A program made the position numbers and the translations under genes. A DNA stretch of 64,000 nucleotides from Octopus vulgaris (taxonomy: Eukaryota): contig OX597816.1 in NCBI GenBank assembly GCA_951406725.2, positions 152,768,001 to 152,832,000 on the forward strand. The letters run 5' to 3'. Below, piece by piece: positions 11,239 through 60,550 of this stretch; positions within the stretch are counted from its first letter, which is position 1; every line of letters starts with the position of its first letter. The notes beneath the pieces are model-generated. The model saw only the letters and a program-made list of their open reading frames with translations, ran no database searches and was not told the DNA's origin.

Positions 11239-11713
11239 ATAGAATAAAAGGATGAAACAGCAAACAACTAGAAACAGGTCAGATTGGAACAGTTATACAT
11301 TTAAATATGAAAGTTGAGTTGTTACAGTATATATCACAAGAAGTCGATGAAAGGTCAATTGAAGAATGTTCATAATGGTCATTTGTATATCTTAGTATTC
11401 CTGGAACTGTTATACGATAGGTCCGAATTATTGGTATGAAGTAAAGCTAGTCATCGTAGATGAGAAGAAATTAGGAAAGGAGGACTTCCACCTTTCTTCA
11501 CATCTACCTATGGATTCTACCTGCGATGACCAGCTTTACCTAATATCAATAATTCGGACTTGCTGTATAACGATTATGAACGTTCTTCAACTGATCATTT
11601 ATCGACCTTATGTGACGTATACTCCTGTAACAACTCATCCCCCGTATTTAAATATATCAATGTCATAATCTCACCCGATACAAGCTGTTTGCCTTTTTAT
11701 TCCTTTATTCTAT
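11239..11713. repeat. Long diverged inverted repeat (~200-230-bp arms)
   Basis: Matching blocks gtaaagctagtcatcg/cgatgaccagctttac, gtccgaattattg/caataattcggac, gaagaatgttcataat/attatgaacgttcttc and gagttgttacag/ctgtaacaactc; spacer ~11467-11514. Confidence 0.75.
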
Positions 11714-19989: not shown

Positions 19990-20965
19990 AAAATCTTTGG
20001 TATTGTTGAATCCCAGTCAGGTGTGAGAGATCCTACCTCTGATCATAGGTATTTCAACAGCGACCGTTTCATCATTTTCCTAGGCAGAGGGCTCGCAGGT
20101 CTACTATCATTTAGTATGCAGAACGCCTCTTTTTCTAGCCATATTGTTGATGTCCAATGCGCCCACATTTCTTATTTTTGAGGACGGTTAGGTGCATGTA
20201 AGAATCTATAATCCGGCTACAAGGGCTGTAAATTACTCAGTTCATCATAAATGTTCTCTTTTGCCATAAGCCTTACATTACATCTGTAGGGTAGCCGAAG
20301 TCTCTCTAGTGGTTGCTTTTTTTACGTTATTGGAGCGAAAAGGTTTAAGGTATTTTCAGTTACGTAAAGGGCCAAATAAGGTGGGGTTAATGGGTTTACC
20401 TCAGCCTTTGTCAGATGCAATTAAGGTATTTAGAAAAGAATATATTAAGAATGTGATACAGACCTAATACTATTCGAATTGAACTTTTGTCTCTGTTTAC
20501 ACCGCATTGTCTAATATAGATTCTATCAGTATCACGGGTGGTAGTTATCAGTGGGGTTAATAGCTTCCTAATCTTGATGAGTAATATCTTCAAGTATCCA
20601 GTCTAGTATCCCTGACACAGTAAAAGCGTTATAACATGTGGCATTACTGAATGTGGACTATTCAGACCTCAATACCTTCTGAAGCATACTGAAGGGTTCT
20701 TTTTGTTAATGTACTCGCAACACCCACGTGTACACTATTCACATGAAATACTTGTAGTATTCATAACTGAAAATGGTAGGATAGAAAGGCCATTGGTGTC
20801 CTTATTCCTCATCTGATCAACAATTATTTTTCGGTTGACGATCAGATGGGAACATTTATTTTGGTGAACCTCCATTTCTGTATCTCGTGAGATTGTTGTG
20901 ACAAGCTGCAACTGTCCCTTGCTGTCATCATTAATATCTGAATACAGTTTCAGGTCACCAAAAAG
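19990..20965 (-). mobile_element. Decayed R4/Dong-like retrotransposon fragment
   Basis: GDLKLYS..QLVTTISRDTEME..NKCS (RT, after the catalytic DD); YNAFTV..GILDWILEDI..IKIRKLL; DTDRIYI; GYPTDV..KENIYDEL..NLQPL*PDYRF, homologous to the 48.1-kb RLE. Confidence 0.75.
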
Positions 20966-35920: not shown

Positions 35921-36832
35921 ATCTAGATTCATAATACACGTATTAAAAATGCAAGGAATAGCTATGAATAAATGTATCAAGAGGCGGTCCCAGGAAATTA
36001 GCTGACGCATGCGCATAACATTAAATATTGACATATTGAAAAGAAACTGCTTCACTGAAATATTTAATTGGTGTTTTCTTCTAACTTCTTTCATATAAAA
36101 GATTCAGGGACTCAGGCGAGAAATCAATATCCGCTCTAGCAGAAACACGAATTAAAAGACGGCGAGTGTTGGAAATAATCCCGTGCTAGTACACTTGACA
36201 TGAATGATTTTTTTTTCTTTTTTATTGATATTTATTTAATGTTTTTGTTTCTTTGATATTATTATTATGATGACGACGGAAGAAAAACAGTAAGATCACA
36301 GCAGCTAGGTGAATGATGTACCAAACTTCTCGTCAATTATATAGCTTGATAGATTGTTTCTCCGCTTTCTTACTCTCTGTCTTAACAGCAGGACAGTTTA
36401 TATAGCCAGGTTTTATCACGAGAGATGTTTAAAACCATCATATTATCATAAACTTATTCCAGCACTGTGCATCTCGCAGCTGTTTATGTAGTTGGTCATT
36501 CAGATTGATTTAAAGATAGAAAGATGTTGTCAGCATTATGACTTTCAAATTAAATATCTGAAGGGGCTACATATTTCTAATTTTAATCATCAATTATTAA
36601 TTACTCACCATAGTAGAAGGACACATAAAAGTATATATTTTGCTTTATGTATATAAATATTTCGATCAATTTTAAGTGTACTGAGAGAGAGAGAGAGAGA
36701 AATTGAGAGGCATAAGCATTGACCATAGCACCAATTAGTTTCTAATTAGTTGTACAACATTGTTAGAGAAAAATGACTCTACAAGAAGGATTAATATGTA
36801 CTCTGTGCGGTTCATTAATAGTTACTAGCATA

Positions 36833-36920
36833 CTCGAAAGAACACGTTTAATTAGAAGATTACAACTACAAGTAGTCAAAAGTACAGTCAAAGTATGTAA
36901 AACATTCATAAAGTTCAGCA
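36833..36920 (+). mobile_element. R4/Dong-like extreme C-terminal fragment
   Basis: ERTRLIRRLQLQVVKSTVKVCKTFIKF aligns with ERRNLIRRLQIQAITGTVKICKTFQKF at 48.4 kb. Confidence 0.65.
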
Positions 36921-37786
36921 TTTATTCAGATCCACATTTACAATGCCACCTATGCTGCCACGCATGCATATATATGCGCATACATACGTATATGCATACA
37001 AGTACATATGTTATACATAGATGTATACACATACATATATACACACAACCACACACACACACATACGCGATGCTTCAGCATGGCCACACCTCTGAGCTGA
37101 AACTACAAAGAATATATATATATGTACACACACACACATATATATATCAAGCTTTGGCAGCTTTGCTCTGAAAACCATCGATGAAATAGAATGTTATATT
37201 AGTATTTTATCTTTTGTTAAAAAGATAAGTCATTGTGCATGTTGTTAATTAATTAATAAGTGACAAAAATTTCTTTGCCAGAATACAACACTGCATGCAT
37301 ATGTCCCTACACATATGCACGTACACATATAAGCTATAATGCACACATTCACACTCACACTCTCTTGAAACATCCACACATTAATTTATATTGCTCACTT
37401 CATCATATGTTCTATCTCTCACTTTTTGTGTCTATAGAGAGATTAGAAACCTATGATGCAACCACTTTGCGTACTTTTCATAGAAGCAACAGTTATGTTT
37501 ATTTAAAAATGTATACCTTACATTTCAAATTATCCCAGAACGTTGTGTAGCCTATTATGAATGAATTAATCCATGTTGCCACCATGCGCGGTGTTGTGCA
37601 AAATAGACTAATCAACTTAGTTGAGTCCTATTTTATATATGTTATAAATAACTATAAGGTTTAATCTCTCCGTTGACAGAAAGTGGACTTTTTTTCTCTG
37701 ATGGCAGTCTAAGGAGACTAGGAACTTAATAGATCGATCCTACTTCCCCTACCTATATATATATATATATACATGTATATATATAT

Positions 37787-41011: not shown

Positions 41012-42304
41012 CGAGGGGCGTTCAATAAGTAATGCCCCTGACCCACTTCCCATAGAAGTAGAGCAACGAAACTTGGCACAGTTATTAGTCTTTTTCTACA
41101 TAGGAACCACCCAGAGTTACGCATTTCTCCCATCCTTTGATGCAGCGCTGGAGACCGTTTTTGTAGAAGACCCCAGCTTGGTCCTCCAACCACGACGTGA
41201 CTTTAGAAATCAAGGCTGCATCATCTGTGAAATGCTTTCCTTTCAAAAACAACTTCATGGCTGGGAAGAGGTGAAAATCAGAGGGTGCAAGGTCAGGAGC
41301 GTAGGGGGGATTAGGGGAGGAGTTCATAGCAGCACGCCTGTGCTTCTGATCTGGCGACACGCGAGTTGTGGACCGGAGCGTTGTCCTGCAGGAGGAGGAT
41401 GCCTTTGCTGAGCTTGCCCCACCTCTTGATTTTGATAGCTTCTCTTAATTTCCTCAAAAGTGAAGCATAATAGGCTCCTGTAATTGTGGTACCCTTTGCC
41501 AGGAAATCTGTCATCACTACTCCGTCCTGGTCCCAGAAGACTGTGAGCATGACCTTGCCAGCGGAGGGCTGCACCCTTGCCTTCTTTGGAGGAGGTGAGT
41601 CACGGTGCATCCACTGCATTTTCTGGACTTTGGTCTCTGAATCATAGTGATGGACCCAGGTTTCATCCTGTGTAATCAGTCTTTTGAAAAATTTTGACTC
41701 ATCTTCTTGGCACATCTCCAAATTCATCCTCGAGCACTCGACGCGTTCTTGCTTCTGGAAAGGTATGAGCAACCTGGGAATCCATCTGGCAGACACCTTT
41801 TGCATATGCAAATGGTCATGAATGATAGTTTCCACAGACCCGGTACTAATCTTGACCTCATGGGCTATTTGGCGAATAGTTATGCATCGATCTTCCAAAA
41901 TGGCAGCCTCAACTTGACGGACAGATGCCTCATCAATGGCAGAAGGGGGTGACCAGATCTGAGAGCTGTTTCCACAGAGTTCCGACCATGTTTGAATTCA
42001 CGATGCCAGCGTTTTACAAGGTCATATGATGGGGCATCATCACCATAAGTTACTTTCATTTCATCAAAAGTCTCCTGTGGTGTGCGTCCTTTCAAATACA
42101 AAAACCAGATCACTGCTACACACTCAACAGGCTCCATTTCACACTTGACTCAGTTCAAACACCTGTAAATCAGAAACCACAATTAGCTCAGAGCTGTAAT
42201 TTGTCACTTAATCTATAGAGATATAAATAATTGCACATGCAAAATTTCAGCTAGATCAAACAACTGCAAGTGGGTCAGAGGCATTACTTTTTGAACGTCC
42301 CTCG
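41012..42304 (-). mobile_element. Mariner (DD34D) DNA transposon, near full length
   Basis: 37-bp TIRs 41012-41048 and 42268-42304 (3 mismatches); TA on both sides; 1293 bp. Confidence 0.95.
41085..42137 (-). pseudogene. Mariner transposase with two frameshifts (irritans/Himar-like)
   Basis: Three overlapping ORFs join into an HTH region, WIPRLL, TQDETW, LQDNAPVH and PYAPDLAPSDFHLF. Confidence 0.92.
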
Positions 42305-44023: not shown

Positions 44024-44612
44024 GTTTCAAATCTTGGCACAAGGCCAACAGTTTTAGGGAAGGGTAAGTTTATTACATTGACCCCAGTATTCAACTGGTA
44101 CGAAAGGTTGAGAGGCAATGTCATCCCGGTAGAATTTAAAATCAGAACGTAAAGACAGACGAAATGCCATTAAGTATTTCGCCCGGCTTGCTAATGGTTC
44201 TGCCCGGAGAGCTAACGATTCTGCCCGGAGTGCTAACGATTCTGTCCGGAGTGCTAATGATTCTGCCCGGAGAGCTAACGATTCTGCCCGGAGTGCTAAC
44301 GATTCTGTCCGGAGTGCTAATGATTCTGTCCGGAGTGCTAACGATTCTGCCCGGAGTGCTAACGATACTGCCGGAGTGCTAACGATTCTGCCCGACGTGC
44401 TTACGATTCTGCCCGGCGTGCTAACGATTCTGCCCGGAGTGCTAACGATTCTGCCCGGAGTGCTAACGATTCTGCCCAGCGTGCTAACGATTCTGCCCGG
44501 CGTGCTAACGATTCTGTCCGGAGTGCTAACGATTCTGTCCGGAGTGCTAACGATTCTGCCCGGAGTGCTAACGATTCTACCCGGAGTGTTAACATTCTGC
44601 CAGCACGCCGCC
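44024..44612 (-). mobile_element. SINE family A copy with internal tandem amplification
   Basis: Family A body (ttggcacaaggcc...ccccagtattcaactggtac...cagaacgtaaagacagacgaaat) and head (gccagcacgccgcc), separated by a 21-bp array. Confidence 0.85.
44181..44601. repeat. Minisatellite, 20 x 21-bp unit gcccggagtgctaacgattct
   Basis: 20 units counted, two of them 20 bp; the unit matches the SINE-A 5' head segment. Confidence 0.95.
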
Positions 44613-47498: not shown

Positions 47499-48103
47499 GT
47501 GTGTGTATGCTTGTATATACATGTCCGTGCATATATATTATTATTTGTATGAGTATGTTTATATATTTATATTTACATTTACATACATATCTATGCTTAT
47601 ATACATACATATATACATATATATGGACACATACATGCACACACATACAAACGCATACGCGCACACGCACGCACGAATGTATTCAGTTTATTAATTCAAA
47701 CTGATATGAGAATTTATGTGCAGTTACACCCTGCACATATATTGAATATATATTTGAATATATTTGAATATATTGAACCAAACTAGGCCTTAAAAAAAAG
47801 AAGTTCAGGAGTCGATTTGTTCGACTAACAATCAGTGTTCCAGCATGGCCGCAGTCAAGTGACTGAAACAGGTAAAAGAGTAAACTCACTTTATATTTTG
47901 TATAGTGATAAATATTTTGAATCAATACCTAGTTGGATGCATGAAGTAATTTCAGTGTGCATTCAGCATGATATAAGATGTGATGACTAAGCGAAGTAGT
48001 GAACATGCGTTTCATATTTGTACTTATGCGATGGTATCAGTGTATTTTACTCCCTTTCTGCCTCTATTTCTCACTCTGTGTCCCTAGACATACATACATA
48101 CAT

Positions 48104-48501
48104 AATGATTTGGGACAGAGAAGAGAAACTATGCACAGTTGTGGAAATTAGCTACCCAGCAGATGTTTGCATAAAGCTGAAGATAAGTGAAAAAGAGAAC
48201 ACCTATGCTGAACTATTGAGAAATCTGCAGTTATTCTATCTATATTACAAGTTCAGGTTCATACCTGTAATTATTGGGGTACTGGGATATAAAACACACT
48301 GCCTAAATACCAATCTTGAAAAATTAGGCTTCTCAAAACCAGAAAGGAGAAATCTGATACGAAGATTACAGATCCAAGCCATCACTGGAACTGTAAAAAT
48401 CTGTAAAACTTTCCAGAAGTTTATGATTTAAATATATATGAGCCTGTCTAGCTATGCAACTATATGCATGAGAATACATACAAATAAAACATACAAATCT
48501 G

Positions 48502-48865: not shown

Positions 48866-50132
48866 CAAGGTGCGGTGAATACATTGTCTAAATTATGCAA
48901 AAATGAAAATAACACTGACATTTCATTTTAACAGATATACTTACGAAAATTACATAAAAATATCTTGAAATACTAAAGAGTAAATTTATTCAATAAAATC
49001 GCTATTGGCTTCAACCGCAGCCTCCAGACGACTTTGGAATCTCCTGCAACTCTTCTGGACGGTCTCCTTGATTAAGTTGATGAATGCTGCCATAATCCTT
49101 GCCTTCAGTTCATCTTTGGTGTTACAAAGAGTTTTGTTGGTCTCTCGCTCAACTGCGTCCCACAAACAATAATCAAGAGGATTGCAGTCTGGGAAGTTAG
49201 GCGGCCATATGTTAGGGGTGATGTGGTTGCAGAAATTGTCTGACAGCCATGACTGGATTCTTCTGCTTGTGTGGCATGGTGCAGAATCCTGTTGCCAGAC
49301 ATAAGTTCTTCCAGCAGCCACCCTCTTGATTCAGGGCAGCACTACCTCCTCCAGGCACTTGATGTAGACCTCCGTGTTGAGCGTGATGCCGCGTGGGAAG
49401 ATGAATGGAGGTGTAACGTCGCCATCACTAGTGATTACTCCAGACACCGTGATGTTGACTGGATATTTGATTTTTATCACTCTCGGTACATGTTTTGGGG
49501 ACACACCATTTGATCCTGGCAGAAATTTTTCTGGTCTGAGAAAAATAAAAGCATATTCGGTTGGAGAGGAAGCTTGAGTTTGCTCGAAAACTTCATAGTG
49601 CTGTCTTTCCTCTCGTCCTTGATGGCTTGGGATAAAAATTTGCCCTTTCTCATCTTGTATGAGGAATACCGAATATCTTCATGTACTACCTGCCTGATAA
49701 GAAACTCACACCCTCCCATATCCTTGGCGATGGACCTGATTGACTTGTAGGCATCGTTGTCAATCATGGCCTGGATCTCATCAACCAATTCAGGAGTTCT
49801 TTTCTCATCAGAACAATCAGTGAGTTTTCCGAGCTGCCGTATCTTGCAATCACCATTAGACTCATCCAACTCTTTCCGCATCCTCCGAACTGCCCTCAGA
49901 TTGACACTCAAACACCCTGAAATGTTCACATTGGAGTTTTCAGCGCAAATGCCAAGCAACACATGTCGTTTCCAAATTTCTGGCAAAGTGAATTGCGTCA
50001 TGGTGGTGTTTTTCTCACAGATGGTGCCCAACTGACCCTACTATAATGAGTTATCGACAAAATCAAATACAAACAATGCGCATGCGCGAAATTAAAGGTA
50101 TAACGTGGTGACAATTTACCCATCGCATCCTG
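48866..50132 (-). mobile_element. Tc1/mariner superfamily DD37D (maT-type) transposon, decayed
   Basis: Degenerate TIRs (caaggtgcggtgaatacattgtc / gacaatttacccatcgcatcctg; 18/25 identity counting the 2-nt flanks); FFSDQKNF, WQQDSAPCH and WPPNFPDCNPLDY with 37 residues between D2 and D3; stops, frameshifts and an internal deletion. Confidence 0.88.
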
Positions 50133-55838: not shown

Positions 55839-55844
<6 letters not shown>

Positions 55845-56090
55845 TATATAGAAGGAGCTTCTACAGGACTAGAACTGTTTCATTCAAGAGAAATCTTCAG
55901 GAAGCTAGTTAACAAGAATTGTATTGGCATTTATACATTTAGGCAGGTTTAAAGGGGTGGTGGTGAAGATTTCTCTTGAATGAAACAGTTCTAGTCCTGT
56001 AGAAGCTCCTTCTATATAATAAATTAATTTTACTCTGCTATGTATTGAGTACCTTATTTACTGTGGTTAACCCCGAATCAACCCGGGACC

Positions 56091-56092
<2 letters not shown>
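55839..56092. mobile_element. Non-autonomous Penelope-like insertion with 61-bp inverted repeat, inside (TA)n
   Basis: Perfect arms 55839-55899 and 55964-56024; 64-bp spacer; ~68-bp tail; (TA)n on both sides; the right arm carries the same hammerhead truncated at C3. Confidence 0.68.
55856..55906 (-). ncRNA. Type I hammerhead ribozyme
   Basis: Minus strand reads agcttc CTGAAGA tttc-tctt-gaat GAAA cag-ttctagtc-ctg TA gaagct: 6-bp stem I, weak stem II (first pair U.U), stem III ACAG/CTGT, GUA triplet. Confidence 0.72.
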
Positions 56093-56164
<72 letters not shown>

Positions 56165-58704: not shown

Positions 58705-58747
<43 letters not shown>

Positions 58748-58752
58748 TAAAT

Positions 58753-58802
<50 letters not shown>

Positions 58803-58869
58803 GTATGTGTGTATGTATGTATTTATGTATATATGTGTATATATATATACACACATAAATACATATATT

Positions 58870-58952
<83 letters not shown>

Positions 58953-59125
58953 AGTAGTTGAATGAATTATCTTGTTATGGATAATTCGGTTAACCGATAC
59001 CTGGGTAGCAAATTCACATCAGAGAAGACACGTTTGAAGTTACGTGCTTTCGTGTGGAAATTTGTATGTTTTTTTAAAAAATATAAATATATGAAAGAAT
59101 GGAGTTGAACGACGAATTAACAAAA

Positions 59126-59224
59126 TTCCTTTATTTTCGACATATGTTTCGAAGGCTGCATATTCCTAATTGCGAAGGAATAAGGAGTATATTATGCCGC
59201 TTTCTCATCAGGAAAAGCAAGGAA
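59126..59224 (-). ncRNA. Type I hammerhead ribozyme, identical inverted copy
   Basis: Exact reverse complement of 59330-59428, within the left arm of the 143-bp inverted repeat. Confidence 0.85.
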
Positions 59225-59329
59225 CTTATGTCAACATCAAGATGATTTTTTTTTTGTTATTTTTTTCGCTATGGGCTCCGTGTGAGCAGTCATCTAAAAG
59301 TTTTTTGCGCATCTTGATGTTGACATAAG

Positions 59330-59428
59330 TTCCTTGCTTTTCCTGATGAGAAAGCGGCATAATATACTCCTTATTCCTTCGCAATTAGGAATATGCAGCC
59401 TTCGAAACATATGTCGAAAATAAAGGAA
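59330..59428 (+). ncRNA. Type I hammerhead ribozyme (canonical core, long stem II, palindromic stem III)
   Basis: ttcctt-gc-ttttc | CTGATGA (59343-49) | stem II gaaagcggcat...attcct/aggaat...atgcagccttc | GAAA (59404-07) | catatg | TC (59414-15) | gaaaa-ta-aaggaa. Stem I ttttc/gaaaa plus ttcctt/aaggaa; GUC cleavage triplet. Confidence 0.85.
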
Positions 59429-59471
59429 TTTTGTTAATTCGTCGTTCAACTCTTTCATATATTTATATTTA

Positions 59472-59581
<110 letters not shown>

Positions 59582-59642
59582 TACATAAATATATATACAT
59601 ATGTATAAATATATATATATGTATATATGCATATATATATGT

Positions 59643-59676
<34 letters not shown>

Positions 59677-59746
59677 ACATATGATAAATACATACATATG
59701 TATGTATGTATGTATGTATGTATATGTATGTATGTATGTATGCATG

Positions 59747-59787
<41 letters not shown>

Positions 59788-60550
59788 TACATATATAAGG
59801 TATAAATACATACAAGAATATAAGTCTTATGATATGTATGTCATGATATGTATGTATGCTGATTAATGTATGATCACGGCCAGCCTCCAAGAAAACTAAG
59901 CAACGAGCATTAGAAAACTATAGCGTAGATTTCCGGAAGAAGGATCGAATGCATACGGACACCAGGACAGCAAAAGGGACGAATATAAAAAACAAAAAAC
60001 AATAATGGAATACAGAAACATGAAATACAGAAGCATTAACGGTAGTGTCTTACGACTGATAACAAGCAAACAAATTTTATATATTGGAAAGGAGCCTTAT
60101 ATATATATATATATATATATATACATACATGGAAGTAAAAAGCAACATATCTCAATGACGTATCATCTATTCAGCTCTAAATGGCTTAAGTTAGAACGTT
60201 ATCAGTGTGATATTTACTACATAATTAATACAAAAGTAATACATAATCAATTAATTTAGTCGAATATGATAAATCATTTATTTTTATCAGGAACATTTTT
60301 TTGAATTTGAACAAAGTCATCGTGTTTGCTCTGAGGCAACGTAAACTCTTTTTAGAGCTAAACAAATGAAATTTTTGAAACATCATTCAGATCTCTAATT
60401 TTCTCTTCTTCAAAATATTTTTTTCTGAGCTCTTTCTCAGTTTAAATCAAAGCAAATTAATTTCTGTTATGGCCATTATATTGAAGTAATCACATATTGA
60501 AATTTATGGGCAAATTAAAGAATTCAATTCTTGAAACACACACACACACA

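Follow-up and report, generated by a model that had tools for sequence, protein, structure and literature searches.

The 519-bp unit and its surroundings

The window analysed here, a stretch of 64 kb of Octopus vulgaris DNA, carries at positions 58952-59470 a 519-bp unit flanked by two (TA)n arrays (Table 1), which is larger than the feature given in a preliminary description of the locus. Its first component is an inverted, 5'-shortened copy of a repeat, which carries a 3' extension of 127 nt on one side only. An A/T linker of 18 nt separates this from a sense copy of 208 nt, of which the initial 47 nt account for most of the 65-nt "spacer" between the arms. The preliminary description had placed the arms correctly: 59102-59244 and 59310-59452 are exact reverse complements over 143 nt, with no exact extension possible at either side, and form the longest of six exact non-microsatellite inverted repeats of at least 25 nt in the window. 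It had missed, however, that most of the spacer and the 127 nt to the left belong to the same element. Beyond one 5-nt indel (5 nt absent from the right arm), the match between the arms resumes for 18 nt, to 59079 and 59470, and the full inverted repeat contains no substitution in 161 aligned bases; the "zero divergence" noted earlier thus holds for substitutions but not for the indel. The extension (58952-59078) is structured (fold z -4.1) and offers no useful reading frame, and the start of the sense copy at 59263 looks like a preferred 5' boundary of the repeat family. No target site duplication (TSD) is readable for the unit, which has (TA)n on both sides. There is no further copy of the unit within the 64-kb window, and a tandem-repeat scan (TRF) found no tandem unit at this locus.

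Table 1. Features of the 519-bp unit and its microsatellite flanks (window positions).
Feature	Position	Strand	Remarks
Left (TA)n/(CA)n microsatellite flank	58708..58949	.	TRF period 2, 121.5 copies; likely insertion target
"Tail" of the inverted copy, a 127-nt 3' extension on one side only; non-coding, structured	58952..59078	-	Summed contig depth high in all four runs
Left arm, inverted 5'-shortened repeat copy	59079..59244	-	59102-59244 exact; breaks off 33 nt upstream of the core
Left-arm type I hammerhead motif	59125..59225	-	Descriptor match; predicted cut after 59139
Linker, 18 nt, 94% A/T, locus-specific	59245..59262	.	Contig depth and composition; likely end-joining filler
Sense copy, 5' part (most of the "spacer")	59263..59309	+	Summed depth up to 226,641 in run X1; 12 junctions at 59261-59281
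Right arm = sense copy, 3' part, without tail, running into (TA)n	59310..59470	+	5 nt shorter than the left arm
Right-arm type I hammerhead motif	59329..59429	+	Descriptor and RF00163 (25.5 bits); predicted cut after 59415
Right (TA)n microsatellite flank	59471..59797	.	TRF array 59457-59797

A second unit lies 3.2 kb away, at 55839-56093, with exact 61-bp inverted arms and (TA)n on both sides. Its minus strand bears a hammerhead-like motif (core 55900, GAAA 55881, predicted cut 55862) whose stem II has U-U at its base; the opposite arm is cut inside the core, and this shortened arm only bears a 69-nt one-sided extension. The motif is matched by a relaxed descriptor which also gives 3 matches in 30 shuffled windows, and Rfam yields no hammerhead match at this unit. 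No relationship is detectable between the bodies of the two units (an equal or better score in 328 of 1000 shuffles), and their tails are weakly alike (73 of 2000 shuffles). The palindrome GGTTAACC occurs at only two sites in the window, 58988-58995 and 56065-56072, one in each tail, at 36 and 21 nt from the far tail ends of the 519-bp unit and of the second unit, respectively; noticed post hoc, this coincidence is a lead only.

Elsewhere in the window, a comparison of 148 of the 232 candidate reading frames with Pfam gave two mariner domains and an ND1 fragment past cut-offs, and three weak matches below them. The ND1 fragment (20303-20449, plus strand, 49 codons) is a nuclear copy of mitochondrial DNA, 96% alike to ND1 of Octopus and Cistopus in the five best of 120 listed matches, which points to an octopodid host. 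Broken remnants of Tc1/mariner transposases are found on the minus strand at 41088-42149 and 48989-50037 (PF01359 and PF17906 pass, PF13358 is weak). An old, imperfect inverted repeat of about 475 bp (11239-11713, 64% alike), in which the descriptor finds no hammerhead, is possibly a decayed MITE or fold-back element, and a tandem array of units of about 21 nt occupies 44181-44601, its halves seemingly in opposite orientation as judged from translated frames. Two plus-strand frames, 48003-48431 and 36767-37036, presumably resemble C-terminal ends of non-LTR retrotransposons, and neither has a Pfam match. The 64-kb window contains no tRNA genes; a promoter scan gave 4 hits for 2.9 expected, with bacterial models that are uninformative for octopus DNA.

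Hammerhead cores and predicted folding

The full CUGAUGA/GAAA/GUC core reported earlier for each arm is indeed present. On the plus strand, CTGATGA lies at 59343-59349, GAAA at 59404-59407 and GTC at 59413-59415, and the minus-strand core is the mirror image (59211, 59150 and 59139). A type I descriptor matched exactly twice in the window, once in each arm, and in none of 30 shuffled windows. All core bases of the type (CUGANGA, GAAA and UH) and three helices, with helix I open, are found. In a search of 194 bases, the Rfam model Hammerhead_1 (RF00163) matched 59337-59421 over its full length (model positions 1-45, E 2.2e-4) with every core position present; the unit differs from the model by having 50 nt where the latter has 10, and the score of 25.5 bits lies below the gathering score of 34, the search of the unit at gathering level giving no match. 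A wider Rfam search (E<=10, over 701 bases) returned 20 matches, none from the hammerhead family; those to miRNA families were rejected as generic hairpin matches below their own cut-offs.

Stem I is interrupted, as had been described, and measures 12 rather than 11 bp (5 bp, a 2x2 internal loop and 7 bp). The stem II region does span the unusual 54 nt first attributed to it, but its pairs 4 and 7 are mismatched and 12 nt bulge out on one side. Helix III is palindromic as proposed, with 2 bp around ACATATGT.

Transcription from either direction does meet the antisense arm first, and the full read-through hairpin is predicted at -278.6 kcal/mol (z -35.6). The active fold would cost about 129 kcal/mol inside this hairpin, in keeping with the earlier view that the ribozyme would be trapped there. 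The companion idea that internally initiated RNAs could self-cleave looks weak for the present copy: in a lone sense copy, the active fold is predicted in about 1 in 10,000 molecules, at 5.5 kcal/mol above the ensemble, on secondary structure only. The type with a short palindromic helix III is described as needing a dimer, the account in PMC4209133 giving single minimal motifs as without cleavage and dimers as cleaving at low level; the second core at this locus cannot supply a dimer partner in cis because it lies on the opposite strand. Some copies of the family carry alleles that pair at the two stem II mismatches, and other copies may fold better than the present one. Overall, the hammerheads appear to be carried along with the repeat: in read-through RNA they are predicted to lie hidden within a hairpin of 161 bp, and poor folding is predicted for them even in isolation.

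The repeat family in public sequencing runs

The stretch or part of it is contained in 20 of 24 listed public sequencing runs (half or more of it in 8), from 9 studies and under 4 organism labels; none of the listed holders is given as an RNA run, run X7 being RNA by conjecture only. Contigs of four of these runs were aligned at 85% likeness to positions 58952-59309, comprising the left flank, one arm and the spacer (358 bases). They numbered 2838, 3475, 1368 and 108, most of them less than 99% alike to the reference; 654, 636, 271 and 23, respectively, were at least 99% alike. Summed contig depth, which is not equivalent to copy number, reached 1e4-1e6 in run X1 across flank and spacer and along most of the arm, with 2,451 in the bin at the inner end of the arm. 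The linker bin (59252-59263) had depths of 442, 40, 213 and 4, versus 1e4-1e6 on both sides in the three large runs. All parts of the 519-bp unit except the linker belong to one abundant and diverse repeat family.

Joints between contigs and reference define the ends of its members. In all four runs, opposite-strand joints lead from 59244 to 59305 or 59307; a sense copy thus normally has 59263-59309 as its upstream portion, and the left arm represents a copy truncated at 59244. Among the contigs listed, at least four of run X1 span 59078 with at least 31 letters on each side, so that 58952-59078 is a 3' extension of the same element. In run X2, 45 contigs pass from 59081, the equivalent of the end of the right copy, into (AT)n, and many copies therefore end where the right copy ends. 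The family thus has two 3' ends, one at 59081 before (AT)n in these 45 contigs, the other at 58952, where the left copy extends to (TA)n.

Inversions similar to the present one recur in the family. Of 23 joint rows, 15 are shown, and 10 of these connect antisense copies cut at 59001-59217 with a sense start at 59261-59281; two further pairs from a second table join in the same way, for a total of 12 other junctions in 3 runs of 3 studies; one further pair (59073 to 59140), which lands elsewhere, was left out of this count. These inverted junctions often carry short A/T-rich fillers resembling the 18-nt linker of the present unit. A fixed sense start at 59261-59281 is suggested by these alignments, in which the reference restricts landing points to about 59261-59287 and 8 of the 10 inversion joints shown have fewer than 30 letters on the short side. 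No contig spanning the junction of the present locus itself was found among the contigs listed.

Loose contig ends indicate that other copies have about 18 additional bases at 59023-59042 and a longer loop near 58977, so that much of the family has a longer tail than the present copy. On the left arm, T>C differences (A>G when read along the strand of the ribozyme) were rejected as signs of RNA editing, being equally present in the DNA-type runs X1 and X3, and were taken as variants between repeat copies. A scan of metagenome contigs with the arm pattern gave no matches, and a gapped core pattern gave one metagenome locus and two viral loci, none of them homologous to the unit beyond the pattern. 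The metagenome locus L001 (735-795) holds a type I hammerhead-like motif with the same ACATATGT helix III and otherwise no homology to the unit.

The identity of the arms can be considered against this diversity. Both arms have the less deeply covered allele at 59136 (in all four runs) and at 59190 (in three of four), and the chance of a 143-nt match between two independent copies 3-5% apart is 0.013 to 0.0007; the arms therefore share one template. The absence of substitutions in 161 bases bounds their divergence at about 1.8-2.1%. With the rate derived from the dating of a distance of 0.09 to 25 million years in PMC13282606, we infer an age of under about 2.6 million years for the arms if no conversion took place. 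Identical arms are to be expected at birth when both are copied from one template in one insertion event. Of the two sources first proposed for the identity, recent insertion is thus plausible and gene conversion is unneeded, single-event copying explaining it better.

Origin of the unit and comparison with known systems

The two head-to-head copies of this abundant, hammerhead-bearing octopus repeat most likely arose in one insertion by a Penelope-like reverse transcriptase (RT) and endonuclease. The repeat would be a pseudo-LTR (pLTR) or a short non-autonomous derivative of one. The enzyme would nick both strands of a (TA)n target and extend both ends, with reverse transcription starting at two alternative 3' points, 58952 and about 59470, of the same RNA or a sibling RNA. 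One cDNA would halt early at 59244, the other would reach the 5' boundary at about 59263, and the two would be joined head to head through the 18-nt linker, giving arms identical at birth. This two-primer model is transferred by analogy from the lizard Poseidon element. In PMC11167929, a lizard element is reported to cut and extend both target strands, with two RT start sites delimiting the tail, and to prefer AT-rich DNA; its hammerhead is given as dispensable for insertion in vitro. Self-priming on an antisense template, as proposed in PMC3846280, would also give identical arms.

Insertions of Penelope-like elements (PLEs) are described in PMC8557442 as having an inverted 5'-truncated copy at the 5' end and a tail of 30-40 bp on one end only; their pLTR contains hammerheads, and a preference for (TA)n masks the TSDs. 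An inverted 5'-truncated copy lies head to head at the 5' end of the sense copy both at this locus and at the 12 other junctions, a hammerhead lies within the repeat, and (TA)n on both sides leaves the TSD unreadable. One-sided extensions occur, but are longer than the published 30-40, with 127 nt in the 519-bp unit (more in other copies of the family) and 69 nt in the second unit. The second unit is an internal replicate of the same layout from an unrelated family, and is counted in favour of Penelope-like insertion. No RT or GIY-YIG frame exists in the unit, where stops occur in the three sense frames of both copies, and neither domain was found by the Pfam scan in the 148 of 232 candidate frames of the window. 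Because the copy has no such ORF, the unit is not classed as an autonomous EN+ PLE; the suggested link to a Penelope protein is one of architecture, and no clade membership is claimed.

An annotation of Octopus vulgaris gives 336 recently active Penelope-like insertions (PMC13282606), Penelope is reported as an abundant family in cephalopods (PMC8967140), and 235 Hammerhead_1 matches were counted in the giant squid (PMC6962438). The literature found on hammerheads in octopus or cephalopods and on octopus Penelope elements gave no description of the present family, which may already be catalogued in a repeat collection such as Repbase or Dfam. The arrangement itself is known already, and is probably not a purpose-built RNA switch; the preliminary description had not recognised it as the usual Penelope-like inverted insertion.

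Among other explanations, a family of non-LTR retrozymes (tandem hammerhead units of 150-450 bp, spreading via circular RNA) appears unlikely. The locus would then hold two solo monomers in opposite orientation, which the Penelope machinery inserted in trans, so that the route would be similar and the source RNA different. The unit of about 340 nt or more, its lack of coding capacity, its type I core and its 2-bp palindromic helix III all fit this explanation, as do the size of mussel units (350-390 bp; PMC7229834) and the occurrence of retrozymes as monomers, with their proposed derivation from pLTRs (bioRxiv 10.64898/2026.07.22.740005). Against this, there is no head-to-tail tandem unit at the locus and no tail-end-to-start joint among the 15 of 23 rows shown, and the ends do not coincide with the cut site, being 55 and 188 nt past it and about 150 nt ahead of it.

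An artefact of assembly or polishing, through a fold-back read or through cross-mapped reads that homogenised two slightly differing arms, is a very improbable cause of the inversion or of the perfect match between the arms. Such structures do trouble assemblies (PMC8557442), and among the contigs listed none spans the locus-specific linker with both neighbours. However, unlike a fold-back, the unit is asymmetric: one side has the tail, the opposite side has 47 nt of 5' sequence, and the arms differ by a 5-nt indel. Comparable junctions occur in contigs of three independent runs, the linker bin has depth in all four, and the minority alleles kept in the arms show that these were not polished to the family majority.

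Equally improbable is a later inverted duplication of one older copy by DNA repair or replication, or a MITE-like transposon with long terminal inverted repeats kept alike by conversion. The near-perfect arms and the Tc1/mariner remnants in the window would suit such an origin, but copies of the family are inverted at differing points (59001-59217) and have unequal ends, and a second family displays the same layout with a one-sided tail. MITE ends are symmetrical and constant, which counts against reading the unit as one.

Least probable of all is a selected host RNA switch, in which the antisense arm would silence the ribozyme in read-through RNA and feed ADAR or Dicer, with self-cleavage confined to internal transcripts. 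In its favour, the hairpin is very stable (-278.6 kcal/mol) and the exceptionally high hyper-editing of octopus is tied to long inverted repeats (PMC5625713). Against it, the unit is an ordinary member of a large repeat family, its stem II has two mismatches, its active fold is predicted to be disfavoured, and the 148 of 232 frames scanned include no host-gene domain past cut-off (the sole non-transposon pass being the mitochondrial fragment). None of the 9 variable arm positions falls on the 15 core positions, but this lack of family variants has no significance (P 0.36) and does not demonstrate purifying selection. A relationship with viroid-like paired ribozymes was dropped, since the two arms mirror a single sequence that belongs to a genomic repeat family.

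As a probable product of Penelope-like insertion, the single locus matters little, being retroelement debris of known shape, and represents a clean and young example of this type of inverted insertion in octopus. If the family supplies many perfect hairpins, it would connect a specific mode of insertion with the very high level of A-to-I editing in octopus repeats; octopus hyper-editing has been tied to inverted repeats in general, and Penelope is reported as heavily edited in lizard (PMC5625713). It is tempting to speculate, as a rather unlikely extension, that the family parasitises Penelope as a short non-autonomous element, its 5' start being fixed and its structured tail unusually long, that its near-perfect hairpins of 100-160 bp at very many octopus loci would be a main source of double-stranded RNA behind hyper-editing, and that GGTTAACC would mark a signal recognised by the RT.

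Compared with known systems, the unit most resembles the inverted pLTR units described for PLEs (Penelope/Poseidon and Neptune; Craig et al. 2021, PMC8557442; Arkhipova et al. 2013, PMC3846280), in which the copies also stand head to head with 3' ends outward. The inverted copy is 5'-shorter by 47 nt here and by 37 nt in Pen2a_Av, and the sense copy of 208 nt falls among published pLTRs of 193-218 bp (PMC3846280). An extension at one end, an internal hammerhead and a (TA)n target without readable TSD are shared as well (PMC8557442). Unlike those units, the present one has no ORF and no direct tandem copy, and its junction is an 18-nt A/T linker instead of an overlap or palindrome. With non-LTR retrozymes (Cervera and De la Pena 2020, PMC7229834; bioRxiv 10.64898/2026.07.22.740005) it shares a short non-coding hammerhead repeat, a similar unit size and the type of helix III, but it is an inverted pair, not a head-to-tail tandem. 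Its type I core, short palindromic helix III and G10.1-C11.1 pair are those of metazoan PLE hammerheads (Cervera and De la Pena 2014, PMC4209133), and its opposite-strand cores, about 130 bp apart, fall within the spacing of about 100-700 bp reported there for pairs on opposite strands. In that account stem II has 6-8 bp and stem I 4-5 bp, versus 54 nt and 12 bp with an internal loop here. The unit thus differs from the PLE cases covered by these reports in its long tail, its long stem II and, possibly, a fixed 5' start.
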